A stretch of 64,000 nucleotides of DNA, from NCBI GenBank assembly GCA_964187785.1, contig OZ076409.1:27964001-28028000 (forward strand), written 5' to 3'. This stretch comes from Amphiscolops sp. MND2022 (taxonomy: Eukaryota). A model generated the notes under the pieces. The model did not search any database and was not told the origin of the DNA. It saw only the letters and a program-made list of their open reading frames with translations. Positions 3,785 through 46,351 of the stretch are shown one piece after another. The first letter of the stretch is position 1; every line of letters starts with the position of its first letter. Made by a program: the position numbers and the translations under genes.

Positions 3785-6131
3785 TGTCACGACCCGCTCC
3801 CGGTCGTAATTTCTATTGCTGCAGCGGAATACCAGGCTTTGGAAGAGGCCGAGGACAAGGCCGAGGTAAACTTTACTAAACTAATTTAATCTTAAACTAA
3901 TCTAAAATTCTACTTACAGTACAGCTAAATTGATTGCAGATATTTTTCCGAATACAGAATCTAACGTAAGCGTTACGGAATATTTTCAGAAATGACTCTA
4001 AACAAGCTAAAACTTCCGGTCTAATGTTTTCACACGCAACGCCGTTTTATTTCCGGTCTCATCTTCTGAATTTTCCATTTCGGTCTAAATACTAAATAAT
4101 CTTGTAAATGGGATCATTTCTTCTGCTCCACACTGAAATGAAAACATTCAAAACAATATTCAACTCCGAGATCCCAACGGAGTCCATACAATCTAAAATG
4201 AAAGAACATACAGAAATATGGTGGAAATGTATTCCAATATTAAAGTAGTTGTTAAATATCCACTTAATACCGCATCCAAGTGGTTTTAAGTAAATGTTTA
4301 CAACGTTATGACAGCGTCACTCAACTAGGTTGGTAACGAGCGTTTCTATTTTTACGGACCAATAGCGTCGCTTGTTGACAGAATTATTTGTGCCGGTACT
4401 AGTTAGATTAAGCTTGGTTGCTAATAGCAACGCTTACTAGCTAAGAGAAAAGAATAGAACCGCCTACGCTTTCCGTTTCCACTCCGCTTACTACTGCTGC
4501 TCAGCCAAGAGCAATCTCAATGCGTACGGAACACTTACGGAACGGATTGTAAAATTGTATTCTGCTGCTCAGCTATAGGTAATCTTAATACGTAGCATCT
4601 ACGGAGCGGATTGTAAAATCACAAATGAGAAATACTGCTTCAAACGAAATCCAAACGAAGCTTTTTAAATCGATGCTTTTGGAAGATTTAAGAGTTATGG
4701 TTTTTACACAAGGGAAACTGTACTGTAGGGAAGAATGATAGAAAATTGCAATGATGATTTTTACGTTCTGGTTTTTATGTTTTATACTATCATCATGATA
4801 AATCACTAAAAACACGTTGACATTACGCCTTACTCAGTTCCTCATTAAGGGAACAAATCTACTCGATTTACTACAGCATTTAAAATATCTTAATGATAAT
4901 CCTAATATGGGACGTAAGGTCAACGTCAATTCATCGGTTTCAAGTCAATAGTGATAGTAACATTTCTATGATAATGACAATCGAGCTAGTGACCAGACTT
5001 CGATCATGTTTTGATAAATTTCATGATTATTGTGCAAAGTGTTGAAGTTGCTTTCCATTTATTATGAATATGTTGCGCTCATCTTTGTTGCATTACGTTA
5101 AAGTCCCGTTTGGGCTTAGTTTTGTGTTTGATGTAAATGATATAGCATACCATTAGTAGGTAATTCATATGTTTGAATTTGGGATTATAATTTCAGCATC
5201 GTTTGTTCCTTTATACCAAATTTCTACGTTTTTCCTCCGCTTCCAAGTTGATTCAATCCGTCGCGATTACGTCGCCATTTTCGAGTGTCATTCTTTTGCT
5301 TCGAAATTTAACTTCCCAAGTTGAGAATTGACTAATTGTTCATGCCGGCGTGCCTACGTTGATGGAAATGCAAGCTAGACTTTTGTTTTACCGCAATTTT
5401 GAGACTCAAACAGGAAGTGAGATTGCATGAACAAAAATGATTTCAACAAATTTTACGGAACGCTGACGTAACTAGGAATTTTGATGCCTGTTTTTACGAC
5501 GCGGGACTGAAATGATATGAATCATTAGCGCTTTTTGTTGAACAAACCCAATTTTTGTGATACCTAGGAATTTTTGGGTGAGGAACAAATGATGCTGAGA
5601 AAGTATAAATATGTAATACATACATGTAAACACACAGTTTTTGAATTGCCTTGTAACAATTAGTTCTGTTCCGTTACTATAACGTATCTAAAGATCTTTG
5701 AAGAATTCAACCTTTCCAAAGATACTTTCTCTCTCTCTCTCTCTCAATTAAAATGACAACTAGAAGCCAGAAAAGGAAAGCGGTAGCTGAGTTGGTCTCT
5801 GGTCATTTCGAAACCTCTGTAACCGAAAATCTTCCGCCTGAAGCTCTTGTAGCTAGTTCCAGCAAAATCCCTAGGATAGAATCTGAGGACTTAACTGAGA
5901 TAAAAACGTCACTAAGAAAGGAAATTATGTCTGATCTGACTAAAATACTTGCAGAAAATCAAAAGGAAATGCTCAAGCTGATAGCACCTTTAAACAAAAA
6001 ACAGACTGTCCATATGAATACTCAAGACTCGGACTCTGAACCTGAGAACGTCTCCGTCGCAAGAACGTCCACCCCCGTCAAAACCCACACTGCGACTAAC
6101 TCTAAAACAACACCAGTAAATAGTCGTAACA
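3785..6131 (+). repeat. 5' LTR of element A (2347 bp)
   Basis: Direct repeat of 18094-20438 with TG...CA ends and an 8/9 terminal inverted repeat. Candidate TATA box TATAAA at 5604-5609 and ATTAAA at 5747-5752. Confidence 0.97.
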
Positions 6132-7162
6132 TGGTGACAGGAGTCCTCAATGACTCTACCAACCAACCCGCGAAAAGACCGAAACAACAACGCGCACCCA
6201 ACGAACAGACAAAAGACCGTCCTTCAACATCTAAGATCCTGTTCGCGCCACAACCGCAAACATTTCCAGCTACCAATCTACTTCCGATGCCGAAAGCACT
6301 CACCGCTTCGCTTCCAGTCTTCGATGGTAAGTCCGAAAAGTTTGAACTTTTTGAGGACCTCTTTAGAAACAATATCAAAATGTACCCTCACCTAACCGAG
6401 ATACAAAAGATCAACTACTTTCACTCACTCCTACGAGGAAACGCACTACAAGCGTACTGTAACCTAGACGACACTAAAAAAGACAACTTAGAAGAAGTCA
6501 TCACAGCATTCAAACGTCGCTTTGGCGATTTCCAATCATCCGCTAAAGCGAGATGCGAGTGGGATGCCCTGCATTTCGACCCCACTAAACAAAAACTCCA
6601 TGAATTTCTTGACGTGTTACAAAAAACCGCAAAGGAAGCGTTTGGCTCAGAAGCCCAGAAATTCATTGACAAAGCCATATACGCTAAAATGCCGGATCAC
6701 GTCAAAAAGATCCTTAATAGAGCCTACCTAGAAGACAAACCCTATAACGATATTGTTTTACATCTCGAACGCGAAATGCGCCTCAACGGACTAGGAGCGC
6801 CCGATGAAACCACCCTAGTCCCTCTCAACACCGTGGACACAGCAGTGGCGGATGAAAAGAAAGAACAACAACAACGAGGCCATTGTTTCCACTGTGGGAA
6901 ATATGGCCATTACAAGGCACAGTGTCGCAGACTCCAAAGAGACCGCTACAACACCGCCAAAACGACTACAAAAAACCTAACCCAAAATGAAGCACCCAAG
7001 CCCAAGTGTGATACATGCGGTAAAATGCACAAAACCGAGAACTGTTGGAACGGAGCTAATGCGGCCAATGACCCCAGGAAACGCAAACATGAGTTCGCCA
7101 TACCCACAAACAAAATTGACGAACAACCCGTACCTACAACGTCGTCCCAAGCAAAAAACTGA
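5753..7162 (+). CDS. gag: Gag (469 aa); the first 126 codons lie inside the 5' LTR
   Basis: Capsid-like region (LPVFDGKSEKFELFE...) and two zinc knuckles, CFHCGKYGHYKAQC and the variant CDTCGKMHKTENC. Confidence 0.93.
   Translation: MTTRSQKRKAVAELVSGHFETSVTENLPPEALVASSSKIPRIESEDLTEIKTSLRKEIMSDLTKILAENQKEMLKLIAPLNKKQTVHMNTQDSDSEPENVSVARTSTPVKTHTATNSKTTPVNSRNMVTGVLNDSTNQPAKRPKQQRAPNEQTKDRPSTSKILFAPQPQTFPATNLLPMPKALTASLPVFDGKSEKFELFEDLFRNNIKMYPHLTEIQKINYFHSLLRGNALQAYCNLDDTKKDNLEEVITAFKRRFGDFQSSAKARCEWDALHFDPTKQKLHEFLDVLQKTAKEAFGSEAQKFIDKAIYAKMPDHVKKILNRAYLEDKPYNDIVLHLEREMRLNGLGAPDETTLVPLNTVDTAVADEKKEQQQRGHCFHCGKYGHYKAQCRRLQRDRYNTAKTTTKNLTQNEAPKPKCDTCGKMHKTENCWNGANAANDPRKRKHEFAIPTNKIDEQPVPTTSSQAKN
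6132..6143 (+). promoter_or_regulatory. Primer-binding site TGGTGACAGGAG
   Basis: Starts with TGG immediately after the LTR-terminal CA. The same 12-mer, with TGG>TAG, follows the 5' LTR of element B (32002-32013). Cognate tRNA not identified. Confidence 0.8.
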
Positions 7163-7206: not shown

Positions 7207-10200
7207 TACACCATCGAAGACCCCCCAAATAGGTATGAAGAAGATTTTTTCACAGAGTGTAATGAGGAACCAACTCAAGACTGGCAACGTCGCTGGAACG
7301 TTGGCATGATCCTCCGACACAATGCCAGACACCCAGACGATCCAACGCCACTACCCCAATGGATAACTGAATCACCGGACAACTATGCAACACTCAAGAG
7401 ACCCTTGCCCGAATCAAAAACTGAGCGTATCTACATTTACGATAGGGACTACAGATGCGATCCTTGGGACGAACCAACCATTTATGATACTAACAAACTC
7501 TCCTTCAAAATACAAGTCTCAAATCCCCAAGCACAATCCACAGAAATTATGGACCTACCATCACCACCATCGCCAATCTTAAAACGAACAACACCATCCC
7601 CAACAGTACCCGTCACCATCACGTCCACACCGATAGATGCTGAAAATATCATCTGCATCGAAGACAAAACAATATGGCAACAACAACAGCAAGCAGCACG
7701 AGAAAATGTCGACCCTCCAGTAACCTCCCCAAAAATCGCGCCTGTGACAACACTGATGAACGACGACGTAGAAATCACGGAATGTCCCTCAAAATTACCC
7801 GAAGATCTAGATGTCATCAAAGAATTCATACAACATGACAAAAATGACGACTACATTCCGTTAATGTCTTCCATCGCCCTTAAGAAGAAAAAACGAATGC
7901 TTTTTCTACCAGTCGAATTCAACAAGGTCAAAATCGACGCCTTAGTCGACTCAGGTGCGTACATTAACGCTATTAGCGAAAGAGACGCTGAAAAACTCCG
8001 ACAGCACGCTAGCCAATGCATCGTCAATAAAGCACCCCCACCCCCTTTCAAAGTGCAATATGCCAATGCTGAATTAGAACAACCACTCGCCACGTACACC
8101 CTACGTTTCAAAATAGGCGATTACACCTTTGAAGAAACATTCATCATCATGAATCAAACGTCATTTCCTATAATTGGATTAGCGTTCCTACGCAAGCATG
8201 CCGCAATCCTCGACACGGCACAAGGAACCATCGACTTCCCCAAAATCCAAATCACAATGGCGCTCACAGACGAAAGACAAAAATGCAATCCCAAGCCCAT
8301 TATGATAAAGACCGAAGCCAAACACACAATTCCAGCACACTCTACCCGAATCATATACGCAACAATTCCTGTGAGTACTGAACACTCGATAACAGGTACA
8401 ATACAACCCCTACCACAATTCGACGAATGCGCGAAGGTAATAGTAGCCCCAGCGATTACAACAGCCAGAGATAAAAAACTCCCAATTAAAATCGCCAACA
8501 CCACGGATTTCCCATACACAATAGCCACCGACACCAAAATGGCTGAACTGCAAATCCTGAAACCCGAAGAAACGAAGATGATCCGCCCAGTTGACATTGC
8601 CGCCCTGAATCTCCTCAATGAACATGACGATGTGGTCACGTACATCAACGCACTAATGCAAATAGAACGGCCCGAAGACAATGAAGAAAAATTCTGGTTT
8701 CCGACCCCAGAACACCCAGGCAATGAACAAGAACATTCGCCAATACAAAAGCGTATCTTGAAAGAATTGCGAGACCTTGCTGAACTAGAAAAACTTGACC
8801 CAACCGAAAACGAAGAGTCTCGCAACAAATTCCTATCAATGTTCAAATGGACAGACTCACTAATTGCGGGCAAAGATCGTGAGAACCTTGAGGACACCAT
8901 CGTCGAATTCAACGACATCTTCGCTCGACACCGACTAGATATCGGGATGAATACACAGTTCAAAGTCAGCCTAACACCACAGGATGACAAACCAGTCTAC
9001 ACACAGAGCTTACCTGTCCCGATCAACCTCAAAGAAGACCTAACAGTGGAACTGGCACTGATGCACCGTTACGGAATAATCACGACGCTTCCTTTCTCAA
9101 AGTACGCGAGCCCTATCTTTGCGCAACGAAAACCCAACGGCAAACTGAGACTACTGGTGGATCTACGAAAAATCAACGCCCTCATTGCTGATGACTACAT
9201 CAACAACAACCACCCTGTCAGCACCCTCTCAGATGCGGCACAACACCTAGCAGGGAAAAAACTATTCTGCAAGCTTGACTGCTCCCAGGCGTACCACTGC
9301 CTTCAAATGGCAGACCAAAGGTCAGTAGAGTTACTTGCTTTTAATTTTGCTAGTAGGACGTTCGCCTACCGTCGCCTGGCACAAGGACTAAGCAGGGCCC
9401 TATCAGCTTTTTCGAGCTTCATGCGTGAGTATCTGGACTCAGTCATCAAAGCCGACCAATGTGCACAATACGTAGATGACATTGGCATTGCCGCAAACAC
9501 AACGGAACAGCTCATAAAAAACATCAGAGCAGTCTTCAAATGTATTAGAAAAGCAGGACTAAAACTAACCATCGAAAAATGTCACTTTGGAGTAACCCAA
9601 ATCGAATTCCTTGGCCGAACCATCACCCCCGACGGAGTAGCCCCGCAAGATCAAAAAGTCAAAAATTTCCTCTCCAAAGTACGCTTCCCCAAATCCAAAA
9701 AACAAGTTCAAAAATACATTGGCTTCGTTAACTACTACCGCAACTACATACCGCGCTTATCAGAAAAACTCATCGGCATGTACGAACTCCTCAAAGCAGA
9801 CTCCAAGATCAGAATTTCAGAAGAACTTGTCGATAACTTTAAGGAAATCAACGCCAGTTTAGCGGAAGCTTGTGGACTCGCACTAAGACAACCTATACCA
9901 GGAAAACAGTACGTTCTAATGACGGACGCAAGCTTTCGCGCGTCAGGCTACGCTCTCATGATTGAGGAGAACGATGAACGCAAAATACTCTCCAAACGGA
10001 AAACTTTCGCACCAGTAGCGTTCGGATCACGAGTTTTTTCACCTGCACAACTGAAAATGTCTATCTACTGCAAGGAATTCTTAGCAATCTACCATGCATT
10101 CCTCGAATACAGCCACATACTATGGGAAGCAACAATTCCAACCCTGGTCTTAACAGACAACCGCTCAGTAACGAGATTCTTCCAAACCAAAACGACACCC

Positions 10201-12444
10201 CCTGCACTCTGGAATGCCTGCGACTATGTATTACAGTTCAAGTTTCGAATTATGCACGTAGCAGGCTCCCAAAACACAGCAGCAGATTTTCTTTCAAGAC
10301 TTGAACTTACACCGAAAGAAAAGGTACAACTTAAATTACGAGACGACATCCTAACGTCCCCAATCGAGGTCAACCTACAATCATCAGATGTGGCTGACGA
10401 AGAACAACTTTTCTTCCTACCCGATGAAGAAGATGAATCTGAACAAGAAATTTTTGCCCGAAAAGCACTCAGCAAACGACGCGCCCTAGACGAACATGAG
10501 AAAGAACTATCAACAAAAGTAACCGAAGTCATCAAGATACCACTCAACTCCGCAGTCTACTCCTTCGGCGCAATTAAGGAAAATGCACGGATCAGAAACG
10601 AACAGGACGCAGACCCTCTCCTCAAAGCACTGAAACAGCGGATCTCACACGAAGAATATGACAAACACCTTCTCAAAACTGAGCCGCGAGGACGAAACCT
10701 ATTACGCCACGAAGAACGAATCATAATGAAAGATGGAGTTCTGATGCGAAAATACTATGGAGAAGACGGATCAGTCACCCATAATCAAATTATAATTCCG
10801 AAACACCTAGTCCCAGAACTCTTGGCCACTCTACATGGAAAAACAAATAAACACCCAGGAATCACGAAAATGATACAAGAATGCAGAGCGAAATACTACT
10901 TCCCGGGTCTTGCACGTAAAATCAGGGCTTGGGTAACTAGCTGTCAAGACTGCATTGCCAATAAAAGAATTGACACAAGACAAATACGCCCCAAAATGCT
11001 AAGCAACACTGAGTTCACAATGGGACCAGAAGACTGTCTAGAAGTAGACATCCTACCAAATCTACCTTCCTCAAATGGATACCAGCACATCATAACGATG
11101 ATGGATGTTTTTTCGCGTTACCTTTTTGCTTACCCGACACAGGACATGACAGCCAAAACAGTTGCACGATGCATAATAGACGTCATGACACGACACTGCT
11201 ACCTGCCGACCGTCATTCTAACGGATAAAGGATCACAATTCAGGTCAGAAGTAGTCAATCAAATAACACAAACACTGGACATACGGATAAGCCACGCATC
11301 GACGAAACACGCTCAAACAATTGGCATCCTAGAAAGGACTCATGCCTCTTTGAAAACCTCACTAAAGATATCAACGGGAGAACGACGCTCTATGTGGCAT
11401 AAATATGTCCAGATTGCGGTCATGAACTACAATACGAGCTATCATGAAAGCCTAGGTTGTGAACCTACAACAGTATTTCACGGACGCATACCGTACAACA
11501 TCCTAGACATAAAACTTGGATTGAAACCTGAATGGAAAAAAGATAACAACGAAGAACTGACGGATCAACTACAAAAACAAATATCCGAAATACACCAAGC
11601 CGCCAAAGAAAATCTAATGCAGTCCTACTTAAAGTACAAACAGTACTACGACAAGAAAGCGACAGCAACGCCACTCAAAGTCAACGACTATTGCTACGTC
11701 CTTAATCCGAAGGCAGATAACCAGTCAATGAAATTCGCCTTCAAAGATTGCATCTGGACAGGCCCGTACATAGTCGTCAAAGTATTGTCAAACAACAACT
11801 ACGTCGTACGTCGCACGGGAACCCGATATACGCAAACCCTCCATAGAATTCGCCTAAGGCTATATGCGCCCAATCAGCGAATACCTGACGTAACAGTCAG
11901 AAGGGAAGATTACCTTCCAGACCCAGAGGTTAAAACAACCCACAATGATTGGTACGCGCAAGCTTGGGAAACTGAATTCGGAGAAGTTCTGTTCGGAAAC
12001 AATACGGAAAACGCCGACAAAGAAGCTACACTTACTGAAATTGAAGACATAACAGGAAACGACGAAATTACAACGGGAAATGATGTGGTTAAAACAACCA
12101 CCAAAGAAAGTATAGTGGAAAATGACGTGGTTAAAACAACCACAAACGAACCTACAACGGAAAACGACGAGGCTCAAACAGCCACGAATGAAAATACTGC
12201 AGAAGATAAAACACCTTCCGACAATATAGCGTCGTTCGACCTAGATGTCAGCGATAACCCATATATTTTGACTCCACCACCGATACACAGCCCTCCCAAA
12301 ACACCCGAATTACCGCCTATTGTCGTTGGATATAACCCCAGAAAAGTGGGAAGATACAACTTACGACCTAATCCGAAACCCAATGTCAATCCCGATTTTC
12401 GAATGCTTGACTCAGTTACTACGGAGGACTCACGTCCAACTTAA
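7153..12444 (+). CDS. pol: Pol polyprotein: protease, reverse transcriptase, RNase H, integrase (first in-frame ATG at 7306)
   Basis: LVDSGA (protease), KLDCSQAY and QYVDD (RT), TDAS (RNase H), HGKTNKHPG...CQDC plus EVD/TDKGSQF/ILER (integrase HHCC and DDE), acidic T-rich tail ending GRYNLRPNP. Confidence 0.96.
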   Translation, partial: KKLKSPRLRFGEKVDARAYTIEDPPNRYEEDFFTECNEEPTQDWQRRWNVGMILRHNARHPDDPTPLPQWITESPDNYATLKRPLPESKTERIYIYDRDYRCDPWDEPTIYDTNKLSFKIQVSNPQAQSTEIMDLPSPPSPILKRTTPSPTVPVTITSTPIDAENIICIEDKTIWQQQQQAARENVDPPVTSPKIAPVTTLMNDDVEITECPSKLPEDLDVIKEFIQHDKNDDYIPLMSSIALKKKKRMLFLPVEFNKVKIDALVDSGAYINAISERDAEKLRQHASQCIVNKAPPPPFKVQYANAELEQPLATYTLRFKIGDYTFEETFIIMNQTSFPIIGLAFLRKHAAILDTAQGTIDFPKIQITMALTDERQKCNPKPIMIKTEAKHTIPAHSTRIIYATIPVSTEHSITGTIQPLPQFDECAKVIVAPAITTARDKKLPIKIANTTDFPYTIATDTKMAELQILKPEETKMIRPVDIAALNLLNEHDDVVTYINALMQIERPEDNEEKFWFPTPEHPGNEQEHSPIQKRILKELRDLAELEKLDPTENEESRNKFLSMFKWTDSLIAGKDRENLEDTIVEFNDIFARHRLDIGMNTQFKVSLTPQDDKPVYTQSLPVPINLKEDLTVELALMHRYGIITTLPFSKYASPIFAQRKPNGKLRLLVDLRKINALIADDYINNNHPVSTLSDAAQHLAGKKLFCKLDCSQAYHCLQMADQRSVELLAFNFASRTFAYRRLAQGLSRALSAFSSFMREYLDSVIKADQCAQYVDDIGIAANTTEQLIKNIRAVFKCIRKAGLKLTIEKCHFGVTQIEFLGRTITPDGVAPQDQKVKNFLSKVRFPKSKKQVQKYIGFVNYYRNYIPRLSEKLIGMYELLKADSKIRISEELVDNFKEINASLAEACGLALRQPIPGKQYVLMTDASFRASGYALMIEENDERKILSKRKTFAPVAFGSRVFSPAQLKMSIYCKEFLAIYHAFLEYSHILWEATIPTLVLTDNRSVTRFFQTKTTPPALWNACDYVLQFKFRIMHVAGSQNTAADFLSRLELTPKEKVQLKLRDDILTSPIEVNLQSSDVADEEQLFFLPDEEDESEQEIFARKALSKRRALDEHEKELSTKVTEVIKIPLNSAVYSFGAIKENARIRNEQDADPLLKALKQRISHEEYDKHLLKTEPRGRNLLRHEERIIMKDGVLMRKYYGEDGSVTHNQIIIPKHLVPELLATLHGKTNKHPGITKMIQECRAKYYFPGLARKIRAWVTSCQDCIANKRIDTRQIRPKMLSNTEFTMGPEDCLEVDILPNLPSSNGYQHIITMMDVFSRYLFAYPTQDMTAKTVARCIIDVMTRHCYLPTVILTDKGSQFRSEVVNQITQTLDIRISHASTKHAQTIGILERTHASLKTSLKISTGERRSMWHKYVQIAVMNYNTSYHESLGCEPTTVFHGRIPYNILDIKLGLKPEWKKDNNEELTDQLQKQISEIHQAAKENLMQSYLKYKQYYDKKATATPLKVNDYCYVLNPKADNQSMKFAFKDCIWTGPYIVVKVLSNNNYVVRRTGTRYTQTLHRIRLRLYAPNQRIPDVTVRREDYLPDPEVKTTHNDWYAQAWETEFGEVLFGNNTENADKEATLTEIEDITGNDEITTGNDVVKTTTKESIVENDVVKTTTNEPTTENDEAQTATNENTAEDKTPSDNIASFDLDVSDNPYILTPPPIHSPPKTPELPPIVVGYNPRKVGRYNLRPNPKPNVNPDFRMLDSVTTEDSRPT

Positions 12445-17282: not shown

Positions 17283-18188
17283 ATGAGCGGATACAGCTTG
17301 GTCATTGATATCTCTTCTGATGAAGAAAACAATCGCACGAGTACTCCGCTGAAAACACTGCCCCTGAATACAATAGGAACGCTAAGTGACTCCTCAGTCG
17401 AAGTTTACCGTGGGAGTGACGCCGATTTAGAATCTACCTTTAGTTCCGATAGCTCCCCGAAGAAATGTGGGCCCACCCCCAAAAAGAAAAAGAAGTTCGG
17501 GCGAGTTACGTTCAACCTGCCGACAGCTAATTCGGACACAGATGACTACTACGAAGAACCACCTTCCCCGCAAGAACAGTACTCTTGGGCAGAAACCGCG
17601 TCCACTCCGAAGAGTAAAATTCCCTTGCTGGGAAATGAAAGAGTCCCGAATACGGTCAGGCTGAATGACTTAAATGAACCCCCGCTAGCAGATCTGGACG
17701 CCCTATACAACTTAGATTTAGAAGACCGTCAGTTCACCGCATCCGCCAGTCGTGGCCGTGGTCTGAAAGCAATGGAATGCCCCAGACAGCCTTCATTCTC
17801 GCCCCGCAGTAAGGAAAACGCTCCCCCTACGGAGGGAAAAGGAAAATGCGACTGCACATTGAGCAACTCGAGCAAGCCAAATGGGCCACCCGAATTTTGT
17901 CCTGCTGTGTGGGCACAAATAGAAAAGGAAAGTCGCGAAATGGAAGAAGAAGAAAAGCTCACGGCCAAAATGAAGGAGGGCAGAGGTCTTGCTCGCGGCA
18001 GACGACTACACAACGGGCGCCCCCCAATCATTATTCGAAAAGAAATCCCACACTGCAACGCTCTACCCTTGTCTTTCGGTTCAAGAGGGGCCCTGTCACG
18101 ACCCGCTCCCGGTCGTAATTTCTATTGCTGCAGCGGAATACCAGGCTTTGGAAGAGGCCGAGGACAAGGCCGAGGTAAACTTTACTAA
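17283..18188 (+). CDS. Extra sense ORF3 of element A (301 aa from the ATG; low complexity, basic NLS-like motif, RG-rich tail); function unknown
   Basis: Long intact ORF (frame open from 17232) with PKKKKKFGR, acidic Ser-rich tracts and GFGRGRGQGRG. Reads through the PPT and ends 95 nt inside the 3' LTR. Confidence 0.6.
   Translation: MSGYSLVIDISSDEENNRTSTPLKTLPLNTIGTLSDSSVEVYRGSDADLESTFSSDSSPKKCGPTPKKKKKFGRVTFNLPTANSDTDDYYEEPPSPQEQYSWAETASTPKSKIPLLGNERVPNTVRLNDLNEPPLADLDALYNLDLEDRQFTASASRGRGLKAMECPRQPSFSPRSKENAPPTEGKGKCDCTLSNSSKPNGPPEFCPAVWAQIEKESREMEEEEKLTAKMKEGRGLARGRRLHNGRPPIIIRKEIPHCNALPLSFGSRGALSRPAPGRNFYCCSGIPGFGRGRGQGRGKLY
18083..18093 (+). promoter_or_regulatory. Short polypurine-tract-like sequence AAGAGGGGccc
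   Basis: Lies immediately upstream of the 3' LTR start (TGT at 18094). Confidence 0.6.
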
Positions 18189-20438
18189 ACTAATTTATTC
18201 TTAAACTAATCTAAAATTCTACTTACAGTACAGCTAAATTGATTGCAGATATTTTTCCGAATACAGAATCTAACGTAAGCGTTACGGAATATTTTCAGAA
18301 ATGACTCTAAACAAGCTAAAACTTCCGGTCTAATGTTTTCACACGCAACGCCGTTTTATTTCCGGTCTCATCTTCTGAATTTTCCATTTCGGTCTAAATA
18401 CTAAATAATCTTGTAAATGGGATCATTTCTTCTGCTCCACACTGAAATGAAAACATTCAAAACAATATTCAACTCCGAGATCCCAACGGAGTCCATACAA
18501 TCTAAAATGAAAGAACATACAGAAATATGGTGGAAATGTATTCCAATATTAAAGTAGTTGTTAAATATCCACTTAATACCGCATCCAAGTGGTTTTAAGT
18601 AAATGTTTACAACGTTATGACAGCGTCACTCAACTAGGTTGGTAACGAGCGTTTCTATTTTTACGGACCAATAGCGTCGCTTGTTGACAGAATTATTTGT
18701 GCCGGTACTAGTTAGATTAAGCTTGGTTGCTAATAGCAACGCTTACTAGCTAAGAGAAAAGAATAGAACCGCCTACGCTTTCCGTTTCCACTCCGCTTAC
18801 TACTGCTGCTCAGCCAAGAGCAATCTCAATGCGTACGGAACACTTACGGAACGGATTGTAAAATTGTATTCTGCTGCTCAGCTATAGGTAATCTTAATAC
18901 GTAGCATCTACGGAGCGGATTGTAAAATCACAAATGAGAAATACTGCTTCAAACGAAATCCAAACGAAGCTTTTTAAATCGATGCTTTTGGAAGATTTAA
19001 GAGTTATGGTTTTTACACAAGGGAAACTGTACTGTAGGGAAGAATGATAGAAAATTGCAATGATGATTTTTACGTTCTGGTTTTTATGTTTTATACTATC
19101 ATCATGATAAATCACTAAAAACACGTTGACATTACGCCTTACTCAGTTCCTCATTAAGGGAACAAATCTACTCGATTTACTACAGCATTTAAAATATCTT
19201 AATGATAATCCTAATATGGGACGTAAGGTCAACGTCAATTCATCGGTTTCAAGTCAATAGTGATAGTAACATTTCTATGATAATGACAATCGAGCTAGTG
19301 ACCAGACTTCGATCATGTTTTGATAAATTTCATGATTATTGTGCAAAGTGTTGAAGTTGCTTTCCATTTATTATGAATATGTTGCGCTCATCTTTGTTGC
19401 ATTACGTTAAAGTCCCGTTTGGGCTTAGTTTTGTGTTTGATGTAAATGATATAGCATACCATTAGTAGGTAATTCATATGTTTGAATTTGGGATTATAAT
19501 TTCAGCATCGTTTGTTCCTTTATACCAAATTTCTACGTTTTTCCTCCGCTTCCAAGTTGATTCAATCCGTCGCGATTACGTCGCCATTTTCGAGTGTCAT
19601 TCTTTTGCTTCGAAATTTAACTTCCCAAGTTGAGAATTGACTAATTGTTCATGCCGGCGTGCCTACGCTGATGGAAATGCAAGCTAGACTTTTGTTTTAC
19701 CGCAATTTTGAGACTCAAACAGGAAGTGAGATTGCATGAACAAAAATGATTTCAACAAATTTTACGGAACGCTGACGTAACTAGGAATTTTGATGCCTGT
19801 TTTTACGACGCGGGACTGAAATGATATGAATCATTAGCGCTTTTTGTTGAACAAACCCAATTTTTGTGATACCTAGGAATTTTTGGGTGAGGAACAAATG
19901 ATGCTGAGAAAGTATAAATATGTAATACATACATGTAAACACACAGTTTTTGAATTGCCTTGTAACAATTAGTTCTGTTCCGTTACTATAACGTATCTAA
20001 AGATCTTTGAAGAATTCAACCTTTCCAAAGATACTTTCTCTCTCTCTCTCTCAATTAAAATGACAACTAGAAGCCAGAAAAGGAAAGCGGTAGCTGAGTT
20101 GGTCTCTGGTGATTTCGAAACCTCTGTAACCGAAAATCTTCCGCCTGAAGCTCTTGTAGCTAGTTCCAGCAAAATCCCTAGGATAGAATCTGAGGACTTA
20201 ACTGAGATAAAAACGTCACTAAGAAAGGAAATTATGTCTGATCTGACTAAAATACTTGCAGAAAATCAAAAGGAAATGCTCAAGCTGATAGCACCTTTAA
20301 ACAAAAAACAGACTGTCCATATGAATACTCAAGACTCGGACTCTGAACCTGAGAACGTCTCCGTCGCAAGAACGTCCACCCCCGTCAAAACCCACACTGC
20401 GACTAACTCTAAAACAACACCAGTAAATAGTCGTAACA
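18094..20438 (+). repeat. 3' LTR of element A (2345 bp)
   Basis: By eye it differs from the 5' LTR by about 3 substitutions and one CT microsatellite unit. Confidence 0.97.
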
Positions 20439-29500: not shown

Positions 29501-29987
29501 GTTGTGTTATAATCTGCTGGTTGTCCATTATTGATATGTTCATCATGTTGGACTCTACCGCGGATTCAATTTTGAAATCCCAATGGGCGCTCATCCCATT
29601 CAAGGAAACGCTTTGCCGTATTCATACTTGGTCGTTTTATGCCACTGTGTCAATATCGGCTAACTTGGTTTTAACTCTGGCCGTAGAACGATTTTACGCA
29701 ACGTATTTTCCGTTCAAGTACCAGGAACAAAGTTCTGTTTCAAATACCAACAAGGTATCATTTGGGTGTGTATTGGTTGGGCTACTCTTAGCTTCTCCTC
29801 TTGCAAGTATTCACGCCATCGATGGAGGCCACACTTGCTTCGGTCTGGCCGATTATATGAACGAAACAGTGGCAGTCACAGCAATGATGTTCCAGAGATA
29901 TTTTGTCACCTTTACACCTTTGTTGCTGATGTGCGTTTTGAATGCTCTCATTGTGATACGGATTTTTGCGCGTCCTCGGTCAAAAAG
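29501..29987 (+). CDS. Rhodopsin-class GPCR, exon 2 (TM2-TM5)
   Basis: Acceptor ttttacag; LSIID (TM2), CRIH (conserved Cys), LAVERFYATYFP (DRY-like), TM5 TPLLLMCVLN; phase-2 donor AG|GTTGGT. Confidence 0.88.
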
Positions 29988-30975
29988 GTTGGTCAACGAT
30001 GTCAAACAGTTTCAAGTCTTCTTTTAAAAAATGTTGAGAAGTCATTTTCGGTCTAGAGGCATTTTCTGTTGAGAAGAAAGTGAACATATACTGTGCGTAA
30101 TAGGAAATTAGACGAAACATCTAGGCTCAACAACTCTTTATCCAATTACCCCATAACGACAAACTTTGCAACACATTTACATGTAACAGTTATTTAGAGA
30201 TTGTAGCGGACGTGAGAGGTTTTGTTCAGATATTTTTCCTCGCAATTTTTTACTTGTTGCTTCGAAAACTGTATGTGTAACAATGAAAACTAAAAGACAA
30301 GCGAGAGTTACACTTGAAGCTCACTACACTGCAGGTCAAATAACAGCTCAATTATTAGTAACAATTTTTCCACAGTTTATTAGGGCCACGGTATATAATA
30401 AATTCAACCACTTCAAGAAATTTGGGACACATTCCAGGCAGGCTGGAATTGGACGACCCAAGAAACTTTATAGGAACGATATGAAAAAATTGTGCAAACT
30501 TGTAGAGCAATCCTGTCAAATTTTTGCAAAAGGACTTTCTGAGATGCTGGAGAGCCGGGGACGAGTTAAGGTATCAGAACGGACCATTTAACGAGCACCG
30601 AGTCATCTGGCTTCTGAAAGAAAAAAGCCAACTTTATACAAAATCTCACAAACGACCCAAAACAATCAAAGGTGATTTTTTTGCACAAGAATGCAAGACT
30701 ACAGCTGGTATAATGCATTTACTACCGATGAATGTTTTTCCTATGTCCATCGCAATACTTTGATGCATTGCTACCGTTGATGCCGACCCTCGATTATGAT
30801 CCCAAATTTTTCCCCAAAAGTTATGTTTGGGGGGTTTTAAGCTCCAAAGGATTCTATCTAAAAGTGGGGACGGGTACTGTGGATAGCAGAAAGTACTGCC
30901 AGATTGACTTCATTCCGTTTGCAAAATCATTATTTCCGGAAGGATGAGTACTGCAACAGGACGGAGCGGCACCAC

Positions 30976-32001
30976 TGTCATGCCTGATGCATGAAAATAC
31001 AAACAATGATGTGAATAACCATCCTACAAACTAAAGATGAGAAATAAACCGGCAAACAGCGAACGAATATTAACAAAGAAAAAGAATGTGGCGCACCAAA
31101 CCAAACCACATCACAAAACTTGAACTCGAATTTGCCAAATGCATCATTTTTATTCAATTCCCAAATAACTTTGCTCTATTCACCCATATTTCATACATTT
31201 ACTACATATACTCTGTAAACCAAATTCGCGACTGTTTAGTTGACTGTGAAAGTAATGTGGGTGATGCACCATCATTAGATTTTCGTTCCAATATTATTAG
31301 TCCTGTGATCAATATATACAGTAACCGTTTACTCATATGAAGCTAGTAGTGAAACCACATCATAATACCAAGTATTGAGTCATGTAACCATAGCAATGCA
31401 ATTGTCTTTTATTTCTATGCTACGACAAAATTGCGCAATTACTGATCAGGTTGTGAATGAACGCAGTGATATGATTGGTTGATGTGGTCACGTGACAAAC
31501 GTCGCAATAATTGACACCAGACAAAATAGTACAAGCAGTAGATTTTGTAAAGTTACAACGTGCAGTTGCTTACCACATCAGTATCTTGATATCATAATTT
31601 TCGACATTTCCAACTTATTACTTTCAATAATCAAAAATTTTAAACTCCTACGCTTTTCTTTATGGTCAACACTAGATCTAGAACAGCCAGAAATACTCAT
31701 TAGAATATGAACGGAACATACAAGTACAGTGATGTTGAAAACGAAAGTAGTATTCCCGAAGTTCTCACGAGAGAACAAATGAATGACTTCGACAACGGAA
31801 ATCTATTGGACTACAGAAATGAATCAGAACACCATACAGTAAACCAACGGTTCAATCAAATGAACAAGCAGACTAGCGACTTAACAAACCTAGTTCTCGC
31901 GTTAACTGAAAAAATATCCTCCAACGATAAGATATCCTCTAGCAATAGAGGAGGGAACGACCTTAACACGGTCTCAATCGGACATGAGACCCGTTCCGAC
32001 A
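30976..32001 (+). repeat. 5' LTR of element B (1026 bp)
   Basis: Diverged direct repeat of 45325-46351 (several percent mismatches by eye). Confidence 0.95.
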
Positions 32002-33193
32002 TAGTGACAGGAGCTCCAACGACCAACCATCTGCCGAATCCACTACGTCAATCTACCTCGCAATACCCTCAGCCATCTGCCCACCAGTTCGATGACATCG
32101 TCACTGAAATCCACCACCTGAGGGACACCATGACGGATACAGTACAACATCCGAAAATATTGCAGACACAAGTTCCACTTTTCCAAGGAAATCGGGAAAA
32201 ATACAATGAGTTTGAGCACCTACTGCGCAATCATCTCAGGCCACACCAGCACAAATTGTCAGAAGAGCAGAAACTGACATACTTCCAAAGCCTGCTGCGC
32301 GACGACGCCATTGAATTTTGGCAATCGCTGAAGATGACAAACCACATCACACTAGCGCAAGTCTTGCGTTACTTCAAGAAGGAGTACGCAAAAGAAGACT
32401 TGAAAGAAGTGGCCAACGACAAGTTTGACCAGATGCACTACAACCCTTCAGCTGAGACCTTTAATGACTTCCTCAACAAGTTCAAAAATGTAGCGAAACA
32501 AGCATTTGGGGACAAGTCCAGTGACATAACAGAGACATTTCTGTTCACCAAACTCCCCGTTCAAATGCAAAACGAATTGGCCTTGGCAGGCAAACACGAC
32601 GCATCGATGGAAGAAATCCGGACATTTGTGCAACGCAGATGTCAATATGCGCAGCTCATCCCAAACACAACCAGTGCGCAACCGTTCAACCAGATAAGCG
32701 CACCCCAGCCAAATGTAGCCGCGCCTCAGGCATCTAACGCCCAACACCAGCGAAACAGGGAGACAAAGCGAAAATTCGATGGCCAATGCCGCCACTGCGG
32801 AATGCACGGACACAAGTGGGCAGAATGCAGAAAACGCCTCCGGGAGGAAGCACAAGCCAAACCTCCGAGCCCAACCCCGCATAAACTAGCCCAACCCACC
32901 CAAACTCAGGAGACCAGGCCAAAATACAACTCCAAACTTGTGTGCCAAATTTGTGGCAAGGTGGGACATTCCGCTCGAGACTGCTACTACAGGAATACGA
33001 CGACGTCAGCCTACCGAAGCGTCCCGTACCCTATGCAGTCGACCGAGGAAAACAGACAATTCAGAAGAGATTTCAAACAGACCAACAGCAGGGTCTACAA
33101 CGCAAACGAACTGTCCCACACCACCAACGATGAGACCGACAATGCTGAGGAAACGGAACGACACGATGACTAGAAGATCCAAAAAACTTCTAA
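31662..33193 (+). pseudogene. gag: gag of element B; starts inside the LTR, with a nonsense TAG at codon 14
   Basis: ATG 31662 (MVNTRSRTARN) is in frame with ORF 31707-33173, and the 3' LTR has TCG at the TAG position. Knuckles CRHCGMHGHKWAEC and CQICGKVGHSARDC; AAAAAAC at 33181-33187. Confidence 0.88.
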
Positions 33194-39186: not shown

Positions 39187-42100
39187 CTACTCATATGATG
39201 AGTCTATTTGGAAACGACTCTGTCGTTTCTTCCCGCTCACGACCACTTCACCCGCAGAATCGCTATCGGAACTAACAACATTAGCCAGTTGTAAACTTTT
39301 ATTTCCTCGGGGGATCCCCCCTGTTCGACGCCCAACTGACTGCTTAGAAAGGGAACCACCACGACTAGCTGAAGACATATCACAACTGGCACCTCTAACA
39401 CTCTTTGCAGCAGACTTTTTACTCTGGGAGACCAACGGAGCCGAAGTCGAAACGCCAATGCCCAAAGCGACATCGCTCTGTCTCCGTGCACTCTTATTTG
39501 ATTTAGCGCTAACCATAGCAACGGGACTACTCCGTCGTCCAGCACGTGGGGGACTCAGCACCTCCACGAGGTCCAATTGTGCCAGGACACTAGAACGATA
39601 ATCGTCAATAGGCACCGTCGATGTAGACACTTGCATATCATTGGTAGAGCAAACACGCAGTAGTCCAGTCAGCGATTGACGGGTATGACCCGCGAACATC
39701 TTCGAAAACCAGCTTCTGACAAGATGCAAACTAGAACGAAGAGTATCAACAGGCATAGCAGCATCAACTTCATCAGTGAAATTAGGGTTGTAAGACCCAA
39801 CTACCGTAAGTCCAAACAAAACGTTCAGTACTAATAACAGTTCTTGACACCGAGACCAATAAGGGTATGAAAACCACATTGAAATAACATCATCCATTAC
39901 AGGTACCCCCTCTATTAGCATCCATTTGTTTTTGAAAAATTGAGTCACCTCCCGATACTGTCTCAGGGTAACAGCAGCTATGTCGTCGCTCATCAAGTTG
40001 TAACGATAAAGAGTATCACAGGTCCCAACTAGCGCTAGTGCAGCAGTGTCTGCAAAATAGTCTAGTGCATACGCGCAAATAGTCCAGAACGCTGAGGGGA
40101 TCCAGTCCAACGAACTCAGTAAGAAAGTGCTTTCTGACGAGGTCAAAAAGCCACATTTGTGTAACACGGCCCACGACCAATGGATAAATGACTCCAATCG
40201 AAGCCGCTAGCGCGTATCCAATACGGGTATCTGACTCAGTGCTGTACAGTCTAACAGTGGACGCATGAGGCAGACTCAGCAACACCGGGACAGCATTGTC
40301 GACCATTCTCTTCTCCCAGCTACTCCCGCCAACCACCGCACCAAGAACGACCGTCTCCACAACGTAGTCACAAACCACATGGTACTCGCACAGCCAATCT
40401 GCCCCATGCCGTCTGATGCTGACACTCACGCTTTTGCCACGAGCTATTAGGTCATCTAACTGCTCCACAACGAATCGGTACAGTCCATAGAGAACCAGAA
40501 TGTGTCAAAACGAAAAACGACCTCATTCTACACATTTTTACATACAGCTGCCTAGTTACATACACAACCATATCACGATAACAAATTGACAATCCTCACA
40601 CACAAAACAAAAACTAACATGAGCTAATGTAGGTACCTGACATCGTGGGTATGTTAAAGTGCGGCACTCAACCCGTAGTTCCGTATTCATGGCGTCCCGC
40701 CATGACTCCACGATCCGTATTACGTCTTTGAATGTAGTAGTGCTACAGAAACTAAAACTACTCACAAACTGGCAAACCAACACGCTCTCCTCACGCAATG
40801 CAGGCTTCCCTCCAGCAGCTGCTTCAGCCTCCTCGATTGCAATCCGTTTATCCACGGTGAGACTAAGTTTTGACTCCAGGAACACTGGAGGTTCCGACAT
40901 CCGAGCTCGCCGAATACGTCTGTCTCCTTCCGCAGACACTGGTCGACAAGCTTTATCAAGTAACGGCATTTGCATCATAATGCGATACTTCTGCTCCAGA
41001 CGGGTGTGTTCCACACCCCGCCAATGCACCCACAGGGAAGACAAACCACGTCCGGCAATGCTGAGGTCAACTTTACTCAACAGGCATCGGGCATGACCGT
41101 CGATTACACATTTATGTCGGGGAAAACCAACGAAGTTCCCGGCAACTCCTGATACAAAATACGAAGGCTTCAGTGTTTTCACCTTCTTAACTCGAGCTGA
41201 AACAAGCAAAACATTCGCATTGCCACACACAAAAAAACCTTCTGCAACAAAAACTAACAGTTACTCCCGCCTAGGACTTCCAAAAGAAAAAATGTGTGTG
41301 CCTTGAGCGTAGGATAACCACTAAAACCCCTCCCATGATCTTTTGAGAGTTCCTAACCAGGTTTAGCAGATGTGGTGGGCCCTCCATCCTTCGACACCAC
41401 TGACCGCAAGCCACCAAAAGCAGTCGGTACTTCCTAGATCTGTCTGACTCATGCAGCACCGTTCAGGGCAAATGGACTCCCAGGAACCTCTACTGGGCCT
41501 GGCGATACAGCAACCGCTGGCTGGATTTGAACTGCCGCAACCCCACAAGACGGAGTGGTATTATCCAGCTGTCCCATGGCAGTCTGCACCTTCTTTGCAA
41601 ATTCCTCCAGAGATTGCACACCAGCGGTACTTAAATCTCCCAATTTCGCTTCTATCACTGCTTTGACAGTTCCGGACAGTTCCTTTGACGTCCGTTGCAG
41701 AAGAATTCCCATTTCTGCTTTCGTTACGGGTGCACCAATAGTAGTACGTAAAAACAGTCAATTTTCTACCGCAAGTCATTTACACTCACCAACTTACGGG
41801 TCCCGGCACCCCTCCCTACACCACACGATGATCCGAGATTGATTACCTACAATGTACAAAGAACGACCACTTACCCAATGGATCGGCGAGGTAGTTACTG
41901 AAACGGTCCTCGACAGCAGCCAGAAGCGCACGAAGCACATGCACGACGCTCACCAACAGCAACTCTTCTAGAACAAATTAAAAAGGATGACGCCCTTGAA
42001 ACCACATCAGTTACCCAGAGCATTGAGATCCCGGGAAGAACAAAAGCTATCATGTTAATATTGCCCCAAACAGCGTATTAGCATAAGATAATTCAAAATG

Positions 42101-42490
42101 CTCTGATGACGGAAGAACAACTCTCCAATCGAATAACGCAAAAAATCACAGGTGATACCCGAAACACGGACACATTCACCTACACGCCAAGATTTGAAAC
42201 CAATAAGAAAAATGAAAATACGAGTACTTACGGAATTCACTGGATAAGGCTATTTCCAGTAGAGTATTAGCTGCCTCGATATTGCTATCTGTCACTTTGC
42301 GCGAGAAACGACAGCATGCAGCAGAACTCTCATCCCTCAACACTTCATCAACAGCAGCAGGTAACTCACTGCCCATCGATGAGAAACTAAACTGTTCTAG
42401 TTTTTCAACGCACCTTCTGCTGTCAGAACAACAGCGGCGACTTCAGATTCTGCTTGGACACGCCCCTCTCCTGACGATGGAAACATACGA
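39187..42490 (-). pseudogene. Decayed spliced antisense accessory gene of element B, homolog of 12605-16686 (5' end approximate)
   Basis: Exon 41196-40637 (acceptor tttcag, donor CAG|GTACCT) encodes a zinc-finger region alignable to exon 4 of A. Further GTAAGT/GTGAGT donors near 41790 and at 42231; Ser/Lys-rich C-terminal tail as in A. Confidence 0.7.
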
Positions 42491-45400
42491 ATAACAACAA
42501 TCAATTCTGAAATAAACAAGTAGAGGCTTAAAAATGAAAACACACAGTCGTTTGCGATTTACTGAGGTTCAAAGTATCTGCTAACGATCATGTGGACTGA
42601 TCAACCACATTATCTATGCGAAGAAACTACCCTGAAATTACAAAGGGACTAACTAATTCCCGAAATTCAACTACCATCCTTTTCCAAAACCAAAAAGGGA
42701 TAGCGCCTCCCCGAAAAATGTTCAAAATCGCAACTCGAATCCCTGGCTTAACCTACTCTTAGGCCATTTGATCATTAGTACCATTACTCAGTAAGCCGCG
42801 GCCGAACTGAACTGCTGAAGAAGCTCACAAATAAAAATAGCTTAGAAAATTTTGCTTCTCGTATTTGGCATCGACGAAGATTTGTTTACAAAGCGCACGA
42901 TGTTCCACTGCATTCACTTCCAAACAATTACCGAATAAGCCGAGTAATTATTTTACGCTGCCACGTTAGATTAATTTCCGGCAAATTCACTGTTATTCTC
43001 ACTCTCTTCCTGCAAGCGACGCGCACGATTGGATGACGTGGCTATCCTCGCCATATCGACTCTATATTTACTCTTTACCGAAGTGGAACATTCAACGCGC
43101 GGCTAACATTTCGTCCTCTCACTTGCAATTTCGAGACGAAGTAACAATCAATCTGACTATTTCCAGCCACGAAGTCAACTCGCCGCTGCCAATGTGGTTG
43201 CTATGACAACATCACTGCTATCTCAAATCAACGATTACCGCCGAGTTCAACTCTGCTAATTGGAATGCAGCGTCCAACCTATCTCACAATTAGAGGAAAC
43301 TATACACCATCCCCGCCACATGTTCTTTTTCCAAAAAGACCCGGAGTGTCCTGCCTGATGCATGAAAATACAAACAATGATGTGGATAACCATCCTACAT
43401 ACCAAAGATGAGAATAAAACCGGCAAACAGCGAACGAAGATTAACAAAGCACAAGAATGTGGTGAACCAAACCACATCACAAAACTTCAACTCGAATTTG
43501 CCAAATGCATCATTTTTCTTCAATTCCCAAATAACTTTGCTCTATTCACCAATATTTCATACATTTACTACATATACTCTGTAAACCAAATTCGCGACAT
43601 CAGCATACTTAAATCTCCCAATTTCGCTTCTATCACTGCTTTGACAGTTCCGGACAGTTCCTTTGACGTCCGTTGCAGTAGAATTCCCATTTCTGCTTTC
43701 GTTACGGGTGCACCAATAGTAGTACGTAAAAACAGTCAATTTTCTACCGCAAGTCATTTACACTCACCAACTTACGGGTCCCGGCACCCCTCCCTACACC
43801 ACACGATGATCCGAGATTGATTACCTACAATGTACAGAGAACGACCACTTACCCAATGGATCGGCGAGGTAGTTACTGAAACGGTCCTCGACAGCAGCCA
43901 GAAGCGCACGAAGCACATGCACGACGCTCACCAACAGCAACTCTTCTAGAACAAATTAAAAAGGATGACGCCCTTGAAACCACATCAGTTACCCAGAGCA
44001 TTGAGATCCCGGGAAGAACAAAAGCTATCATGTTAATATTGCCCCAAACAGCGTATTAGCATAAGATAATTCAAAATGCTCTGATGACGGAAGAACAACT
44101 CTCCAATCGAATAACGCAAAAAATCACAGGTGATACCCGAAACACGGACACATTCACCTACACGCCAAGATTTGAAACCAATAAGAAAAATGAAAATACG
44201 AGTACTTACGGAATTCACTGGATAAGGCTATTTCCAGTAGAGTATTAGCTGCCTCGATATTGCTATCTGTCACTTTGCGCGAGAAACGACAACATGCAGC
44301 AGAACTCTCATCCCTCAACACTTCATCAACAGCAGCAGGTAACTCACTGCCCATCGATGAGAAACTAAACTGTTCTAGTTTTTCAACGCACCTTCTGCTG
44401 CCAGAACAACAGCGGCGACTTCAGATTCTGCTTGGACACGCCCCTCTCCTGACGATGAGAACATACGAATAACAACAATCAATTCTGAAATAAACAAGTA
44501 GAGGCTTAAAAATGAAAACACACAGTCGTTTGCAATTTACTGAGGTTCAAAGTATCTGCTAACGATCATGTGGACTGATCAACCACATTATCTATGCGAA
44601 GAAACTACCCTGAAATTACAAAGGGACTAACTAATTCCCGAAATTCAACTACCATCCTTTTCCAAAACCAAAAAGGGATAGCGCCTCCCCGAAAAATGTT
44701 CAAAATCGCAACTCGAATCCCTGGCTTAACCTACTCTTAGGCCATTTGATCATTAGTACCATTACTCAGTAAGCCGCGGCCGAACTGAACTGCTGAAGAA
44801 GCTCACAAATAAAAATAGCTTAGAAAATTTTGCTTCTCGTATTTGGCATCGACGAAGATTTGTTTACAAAGCGCACGATGTTCCACTGCATTCACTTCCA
44901 AACAATTACCGAATAAGCCGAGTAATTATTTTACGCTGCCACGTTAGATTAATTTCCGGCAAATTCACTGTTATTCTCACTCTCTTCCTGCAAGCGACGC
45001 GCACGATTGGATGACGTGGCTATCCTCGCCATATCGACTCTATATTTACTCTTTACCGAAGTGGAACATTCAACGCGCGGCTAACATTTCGTCCTCTCAC
45101 TTGCAATTTCGAGACGAAGTAACAATCAATCTGACTATTTCCAGCCACGAAGTCAACTCGCCGCTGCCAATGTGGTTGCTATGACAACATCACTGCTATC
45201 TCAAATCAACGAATACCGCCGAGTTCAACTCTGCTAATTGGAATGCAGCGTCCAACCTATCTCACAATTAGAGGAAACTATACACCATCCCCGCCACATG
45301 TTCTTTTTCCAAAAAGACCCGGAGTGTCATGCCTGATGCATGAAAATACAAACAATGATGTGGATAACCATCCTACATACCAAAGATGAGAATAAAACCG

Positions 45401-45578
45401 GCAAACAGCGAACGAAGATTAACAAAGCACAAGAATGTGGTGAACCAAACCACATCACAAAACTTGAACTCGAATTTGCCAAATGCATTATTTTTCTTCA
45501 ATTCCCAAATAACTTTGCTCTATTCACCCATATTTCATACATTTACTACATATACTCTGTAAACCAAATTCGCGACAT
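41628..45578 (+). repeat. Near-identical tandem duplication (41628-43600 and 43606-45578, period 1978 bp) including the PPT and a partial third LTR (43347-43600)
   Basis: Duplicated ORFs are offset by 1978; junction ...ttcgcgacat|cagca|tacttaaatc... Confidence 0.95.
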
Positions 45579-46351
45579 TTTAGTTGGCTGTGAAAGTAAT
45601 GTGGATGATGCACCATCATTAGATTTTCGTTCCAATAATAATAGTCCTGTGATCAATATATACAGTATCAATTTACTCATATGATGCTAGTAGTGTAACC
45701 ACATCATAAAACCAAGTATTGGGTCATGTAACCATAGCTACGCAATTGCATTTTATTTCTATGCTACGACAAAATTGCGCAATTACTAACCAGGGTGTGG
45801 ATGAACGCGGTGATATGATTGGTTGAAGTGGTCACATGACAAACGTCGCCATAATTGACAGCAGACAATATATTAAAACCAGTAGATTTTGTAAAGTTAC
45901 AACGTGCAGTTGCTTACCATATCAGTATCTTGATATCATAAATTTCGACATTTCCAACTTATTACTTTCAATAATCAATAAAACTTTAAACTCCTACGCT
46001 TTCATTTATGGTCAACACTAGATCTAGAACAGCCAGAAATACTCATTCGAATATGAACGGAACAGACAGGTACAGCGATGCTGAAAGCGAAAGTAGTATT
46101 CTCGAAGTTCTCACGAGAGAACAAATGAATGAGTTCGACAACGGAAAATTATTGGACTACAGAAATGAATCAGAACACCATACAGTAAACCAACGGTTCA
46201 ATGAAATGAACAAGCAGATTAGCGAGTTAACAAAACTAGTTCTCGCGTTAACTGAAAAAATATCCTCCAACGATAAGATATCCTCTAGCAATAGAGAAGG
46301 GAACGACCTTAACACGGTCTCAATCGGACATGAATGAGACCCGTTCCGACA
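45325..46351 (+). repeat. 3' LTR of element B (1027 bp), containing the Gag N-terminal ORF 46008-46337
   Basis: Preceded by purine-rich aaaaagacccggag and followed by the TSD ACCAC. Confidence 0.95.

Follow-up and report, generated by a model that had tools for sequence, protein, structure and literature searches.

We compared the 64-kb window, which is the whole stretch of DNA analysed here, with itself and were able to identify two complete LTR elements, A and B, both with TG..CA ends and a 5-bp TSD. The 5′ LTR of element A spans positions 3785 to 6131 of the plus strand (2347 bp, with a terminal inverted repeat matching at 8/12 positions), and its 3′ LTR lies at 18094–20438 on the same strand. 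The two copies are 99.8% identical, differing by three substitutions and a 2-nt microsatellite indel. The gag ORF of A (5753–7162, plus strand) codes for 469 amino acids that include a capsid (DUF1759, Retrotrans_gag) and two zinc knuckles, and it ends at a −1 slippery heptamer, located at 7153–7159, just before the gag stop. The pol ORF (7306–12444, plus strand) is counted from its first ATG, its frame being open further upstream, and encodes protease, RT, RNase H and integrase. Element B, also on the plus strand, has a 5′ LTR of 1026 bp at 30976–32001, gag at 31662–33173 and a 3′ LTR at 45325–46351, and its LTRs are 93% identical. Within B, a 2-kb tandem duplication (41618–45578, 99.2%) takes in the first ~257 bp of the LTR and is much younger than the 7% LTR divergence. 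The tracts before the two 3′ LTRs (18083–18093 in A and 45311–45324 in B) are of little length and finish on pyrimidines or a mix of bases, so the polypurine tracts of both elements are atypical. Family C is represented by a solo LTR of 744 bp on the minus strand (26361–25618), with neither PBS nor internal region and with flanks that contain no matching TSD; the full-length Gag of this family, as in the relative P0269, has ~570 amino acids. Elsewhere in the window, we noted by eye from the translation a LINE-type endonuclease/RT element with three ORFs (72–2916) and a GPCR-like host ORF (29536–30027).

The order of the pol domains in A is protease, RT, RNase H and integrase, with Pfam matches at 197–303, 608–773, 840–973 and 1164–1333, respectively. 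Its Gag matched DUF1759 with an E of 1.9e-9 and Retrotrans_gag with an E of 0.0034, the latter below the cut-off. The Gag proteins are of the CX2CX4HX4C knuckle type, with two zinc knuckles and a zf-CCHC match in B. The TG..CA LTRs, the 5-bp TSD, the PR-RT-RH-IN order and the two knuckles resemble those of metazoan Ty3/Gypsy elements, and by LTR ends, TSD, pol order and Gag type the A, B, C group is to be placed, as judged from the sequence, in Ty3/Gypsy (Metaviridae). The closest Atlas gag clusters stood at 0.93, and the nearest clusters for RT/RH were arthropod and mollusc Gypsy-type (0.94–0.95). The group is possibly Mag/Micropia-like, and we take its two knuckles to resemble those of the Mag lineage. 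The TGG-starting PBS of 12–13 nt is conserved across families; the window contains no tRNA gene to match it, and the primer is presumably a tRNA of perhaps the Leu type. Three other assignments were considered and rejected. BEL/Pao elements have a three-knuckle Gag and a Pao-type (Peptidase_A17) pol, whereas here we found two knuckles, no Peptidase_A17 match, and Gypsy-type RT_RNaseH and Integrase_H2C2. Ty1/copia membership is contradicted by an integrase that follows RNase H and does not precede RT. Finally, Troyka needs CG..CG termini, a 3-bp TSD and a CX2CX8-10HX4C knuckle, according to the available part of PMC12440569, against the TG..CA ends and 5-bp TSD present here.

The initial annotation had proposed that in three families Gag begins inside the LTR and reads through the PBS. 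This was borne out in A, where the frame 5753–7162 is open and its ATG lies 126 codons inside the LTR. The LTR-encoded N-terminus (5753–6130, plus strand) consists of a basic tip (residues 1–10), a spacer, a helix (44–77), a second spacer and a terminal R-N that comes from the integrase att end. At the junction, the last LTR base and the first two bases of the PBS form an ATG (6131–6133, plus strand; codon 127) in a strong Kozak context, with A at −3 and G at +4. The PBS itself (6132–6144, plus strand) contributes to M-V-T-G-V in the gag frame, whereas its +1 frame runs into a TGA stop, and the protein reads R-N-M-V-T-G across the border. From the gag ATG to the LTR end there are 379 nt in A (126 codons + 1), 340 nt in B (113 + 1) and 571 nt in C (190 + 1). 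All three distances equal 1 modulo 3, which makes the final LTR base the first position of a codon whose other two bases belong to the PBS. Open frames this long arose by chance from the non-coding LTR composition in 1 of 20000 draws for A and in 2 of 20000 for B. In the 3′ LTR of A (gag ATG at 20060) the 126 gag codons are repeated, and the frame enters host DNA and stops two codons on.

The 113 LTR codons claimed for B are also present (ATG at 31662, 340 nt before the LTR end), and so are the N-M-V-T-G junction of A and the Ile codon of the mutated B (32001–32003). The shared layout of B and C is upheld by their positions and by open relatives, but the window copies of both have broken frames. 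Element B does not read through, having a stop at codon 14 in the 5′ LTR and Ile at the junction, and its 3′ LTR (gag ATG at 46008) has a 4-nt insertion near its end. The third fragment (26188–25618) had been said to behave in the same way; its ATG at 26188 does lie 190 codons inside the LTR and its relatives read through, but it is a solo LTR without a PBS and with two frame breaks. Read-through in C is known via those relatives, with D-[M/I]-V-T-G in 112 of the best 120 of 2712 matches, and the last codons of the window copy, N-A-Y-D, resemble a YD-MVTG subgroup (23 of the 112 C matches with the motif). As for the three families, they have a layout in common but are not independent, since they share a Gag core (~40% identity between A and C, ~29% between A and B).

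To follow the frame across relatives, we used the Gag of A, of B and of the full-length C relative P0269 as queries, which returned 1116, 131 and 2712 protein matches, respectively; the best 120 of each were examined, and this ranking by score favours full-length proteins. For A, the junction motif was located at residue 95 or beyond in 88 of the best 120 of 1116, 14 were partial, 14 had no motif and 4 started at the junction. The corresponding numbers for the best 120 of 131 matches of B were 77, 13, 27 and 3, and for C the extension was present in 112 of the best 120 of 2712, with 8 unmatched by the pattern and none starting at the junction. The position of the junction shifts by whole codons (127/128/132–134 in A, 104–119 in B and 190/196/198 in C, in the best 120 of each). 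Conservation is uneven along the protein: between A and subfamily A2, identity is 76% in the tip, 46% in the helix, 23% and 14% in the spacers and 87% in the capsid, and within the C family it is 92% in the tip, 69–79% in the helix and 32–43% in the spacers. Moreover, in 19 of 23 hand-picked N-terminal matches from a representative search, similarity ends exactly at ..R-N and unrelated sequence follows, which places the LTR end independently at this codon in other subfamilies; the remaining four continue into M-V-T-G. These 19 behave as expected of 3′ or solo LTRs whose frame continues into the host sequence. A set of 188 proteins, selected for having an extension, fell into 19 groups, which the capsid splits into two deep clades (100/100). 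Every group has [N/D/H]-[M/I]-V-T-G, and the extensions span 97–223 residues. Outside the tip, profile comparison detected no homology among the extensions of the three families (hhalign probability ~1–3%), and in a scan of metagenomes 110 stretches matched and none was confirmed. Cluster "member" counts (1259 vs 12 and 1534 vs 3) include truncated members and are rough only.

Frame conservation across LTR copies had been put forward as a check, and here the outcome is divided: the frame is kept across subfamily proteins, but the two LTRs of B carry no purifying signal: in the coding part, 13 changes alter the amino acid or create a stop and only 2 are synonymous, as expected from decay after insertion. 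Substitutions are not significantly less dense in the coding LTR part of B (15/340) than in the non-coding LTR (46/681; p=0.16). The behaviour of this pair would also fit an LTR part that is untranslated, in which case the junction AUG would be the start of Gag, and chance or a cis-acting constraint on DNA or RNA would have kept the LTR frame open. In B-type elements the best Kozak context is the one at the junction, and the part of U5 that adjoins the PBS is more stably folded than shuffled sequences (z −2.98 in A and −2.19 in B, in windows chosen after the fact), which points to some constraint on the DNA; the decayed C has no hairpin at its LTR end (z +1.38). An untranslated LTR is nevertheless difficult to reconcile with spacers that have drifted to 14–43% amino acid identity in many subfamilies and yet are free of stops and change in length by whole codons only. 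Nor does it account for a helix that keeps its residue character (mismatch BLOSUM +0.11, against −0.17 for one-step neighbours), or for M1 being the first AUG after the predicted transcription start in all three families. We consider it very unlikely. Comparison of the proteins instead supports the view that the LTR part of Gag is under coding constraint across many subfamilies. A Gag that begins deep inside the LTR, ~100–220 codons from its end, is thus supported for this Ty3/Gypsy group, and the LTR likely doubles as protein-coding sequence.

The extension had been described as basic and coiled-coil. The first term holds for the tip, with at least 4 K/R within the first 15 residues in 10 of the 19 groups, but the whole extension is net acidic in 17 of the 19. 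The second derives from one predicted long helix and a crude heptad score. In the AlphaFold model of A Gag, which is poor overall (mean pLDDT 47.7), this single helix (residues 44–77) has the best confidence, with pLDDT ~85 over 51–70; a two-copy prediction of the helix complex, in which the alignment was not used, scored 0.02. A Foldseek search gave no match at E<=0.001, only weak HIV CA, PNMA2 and Arc rows, and a sequence search of the PDB gave weak knuckle matches only. The tip likely acts as a patch for nucleic-acid contact or nuclear localisation, and the helix, which precedes the capsid, likely serves in assembly in the manner of a matrix domain.

Any LTR that ends in CA directly before a TGG-starting PBS yields an ATG at that point, and the junction ATG follows from this zero-spacer CA/TGG border together with stops in the other frames. 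The PBS continues as TGG TGA, which closes the +1 frame in all families with this PBS, and the +2 frame is closed by the LTR end, with TAA in A and TGA in C. B-type LTR ends leave the +2 frame open, so that the phase there is inherited and not forced. The att consensus of Metaviridae is YNYAACA (PMC3601003, in the part of the text available); the LTR end of A matches it, and such an end closes the +2 frame whenever the base before AACA is T. Since N/D/H is the att end and V-T-G the PBS, the conserved Met and its strong Kozak context are uninformative on initiation.

This bears directly on the proposal that the junction ATG is a second start giving rise to long and short Gag isoforms. In a scheme of this kind, a full Gag from 5753 would be accompanied by a shorter product, capsid plus nucleocapsid, initiated at the junction AUG and produced through an internal start in U5, trans-splicing or leaky scanning, and perhaps used for copy-number control like p22 of Ty1. 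The strong context of this AUG fits such a role, as does a Met that is near-invariant in the matches with the motif (100/102 in A, 86/90 in B and 111/112 in C, among the best 120 of 1116, 131 and 2712, respectively), except that both are dictated by att and PBS. The capsid begins ~55 residues downstream of the junction, so a short form could fold. Scanning ribosomes would meet earlier AUGs: three upstream of the junction in A, all in frame and two of them with a purine at −3, and seven in B. In two of the groups, P0262 and P0115, the extension is free of Met, which fits two isoforms. The extension of A contains no out-of-frame ATG where 1.9 are expected (P=0.10), which favours two isoforms; B has 4 where 3.1 are expected. 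Against them, the extensions show no shortage of Met (57/2563, 2.2%) relative to the remainder of Gag (123/6682, 1.8%; p=0.24). Ty1 does make its short Gag, p22, from a separate, internally initiated RNA, as described in the available part of PMC5408680, but this transcript starts near nt 1000, far inside GAG and not at the LTR/PBS junction. Proteins that start at the junction are also rare. All 20 stored proteins beginning with M-[V/L]-T-G have an extended relative at 52–99% identity, and of nine that were looked up, seven form singleton clusters and two sit in small mixed clusters. P0250, whose extended relative is at 52%, could be the one family without an extension, and no multi-copy family starting at the junction ATG occurs among the proteins examined. 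The second start and the two isoforms were therefore not borne out, and we regard them as unlikely; the junction ATG is most likely a by-product of DNA signals, which accounts for the idea of a second start without new biology. We also looked for crossings of the junction in the H-G-D-R frame and found none among those of the 240 A and B matches that lack the main motif; P0304, the lone such case among the long representatives, was discarded, as its N-terminus looks frame-shifted relative to P0262.

Candidate transcription signals lie upstream of the gag ATG. TATA-like boxes, recognised by motif, are found at −149 in A (5604–5609, plus strand), at −117 in C and, by eye, near −140 in the 3′ LTR of B; the 5′ LTR of B has no TATA match at the expected distance. 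The transcription start proposed near 5635 fits the box at 5604 and is a prediction from this motif. Between the predicted start and M1 there is no ATG in A (5635 to 5753), B or C, and M1 has a weak Kozak context in B and C (T at −3). A candidate poly(A) signal, ATTAAA, abuts the gag ATG of A (5747–5752, plus strand; −6), and AATAAA occurs 31 nt upstream of the ATG in the 3′ LTR of B; C has no canonical poly(A) hexamer near its gag ATG. In A, this motif would put the R/U5 border within the first gag codons. Folding of the predicted R region is not stronger than that of shuffled sequences (z +1.67), so no hairpin is available there to explain how the 5′ poly(A) signal is bypassed.

The best explanation, which we hold with considerable confidence, is a gag frame that opens 100–220 codons inside the LTR and stays open across the LTR end and the PBS, and that is likely translated from its first AUG into a single full-length Gag, in which the Met at the junction is a residue like any other. 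Transcription would start ~85–120 nt before the gag ATG, as the TATA distances suggest, and with a poly(A) signal 6–31 nt before the ATG (in A and in the 3′ LTR of B) R would end in the first codons, leaving U5 (~350 nt in A) wholly coding. Translation from the first AUG would then yield full-length Gag, the junction AUG being decoded as an internal Met. A single RNA could serve as Gag mRNA, as Gag-Pol mRNA via the −1 slippery site, and as a template on which priming takes place within the gag frame. The Gag of several related groups has ..S-K-N or ..A-K-N at its end, which suggests that the slippery site may be conserved. The junction codon would be held fixed by the integrase, which needs a terminal ..ACA, and by a PBS recopied from the tRNA in each cycle as TGG.., and the remaining frames would be shut by TGG TGA in all families with this PBS and, in A and C, by the TAA or TGA that the end of the LTR supplies.

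Gypsy gag normally starts after the PBS. In Ty1, with an LTR of ~334 bp, the PBS lies inside GAG and only about a dozen GAG codons are in the LTR. The first GAG AUG of the Saccharomyces Ty1 is upstream of nt 321, in the U5 part, according to the available text of PMC9283973; its U5 is coding as proposed here, where the coding part is about ten times longer. The closest parallel to the deep start is Tca5 of Candida albicans, a Ty5-like member of Ty1/copia with one ORF that starts 382 bp from the beginning of an LTR of 685 bp, has ~100 codons inside it and reads through the PBS; in the part of the paper available, its authors call the start unusually deep and leave open which start is used in vivo (PMC4139406). 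Tca5 shares with A, B and C the deep in-LTR start and the PBS inside the frame, and differs from them in its copia domain order, single gag-pol ORF, initiator-Met half-tRNA primer and low copy number, whereas the elements described here have the Gypsy order, a −1 frameshift and 100–220 LTR codons, and form a whole multi-family radiation. Full-text literature searches, in which older element papers and Repbase notes are thinly covered, returned no Gypsy case of a deep in-LTR gag start. The available parts of PMC7055915, PMC13709905, PMC6431247, PMC6238403 and PMC12992720 contain nothing on gag starts in LTRs, and that of PMC9911081, a genome paper, contains nothing on gag. The layout described here is real and well supported; it is of a known kind, that of Ty1 and Tca5, and is unusual in length, breadth and superfamily.

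These observations extend the Ty1/Tca5 layout, with gag inside the LTR and the PBS inside gag, to a large and probably animal Ty3/Gypsy radiation, in which U5, the integrase end and the PBS would carry protein code too, over up to ~200 LTR-encoded codons. An annotation that splits the LTR from the internal region would lose a quarter to a third of Gag and misplace its start at M-V-T-G; conversely, x-[N/D/H]-M-V-T-G can serve as a marker of the LTR end in protein data. Solo LTRs place a start codon and a helix-coding frame beside host DNA. More speculatively, the LTR could act as a portable promoter, start codon and 100–220-codon module, with every 3′ and solo LTR making the basic-tip/helix piece of Gag with a random host tail and the junction AUG making the complementary capsid half, a reading that we think quite unlikely. 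If it were true, particle assembly would be tuned by how many solo LTRs there are per full element, so that the family would sense its own copy number, and new host genes could arise from LTRs that bring along a ready-made N-terminal domain.

Some further features were observed in these elements. M-V-T-G-like units are repeated inside the Gag of P0275 (three), P0179 (two), P0262, P0271 and P0354, which suggests in-frame duplications of the LTR-end/PBS junction as their possible origin. Between pol and the 3′ LTR of A, the minus strand (16686–12605) contains open stretches of 209, 149, 248, 223 and 471 codons, with GT donors at 16565, 16049, 15694, 15007 and 14212 and AG acceptors at 15919, 14833 and 13947. 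This region is a probable multi-exon gene, although an exon chain assembled by eye did not close; a zinc-finger-like motif is visible by eye, and three of its ORFs have no Pfam match. Element B has an antisense ORF as well (39187–39993, minus strand), with a similar S/K/G-rich tail, and it gave no tblastn match to the antisense frames of A at E 0.01. Back to back with the antisense gene of A lies a sense ORF of 301 amino acids (17283–18188, plus strand), with an RG-rich repeat at its end and no Pfam match, which extends 95 nt into the 3′ LTR, so that both ends of the LTR of A would be coding.
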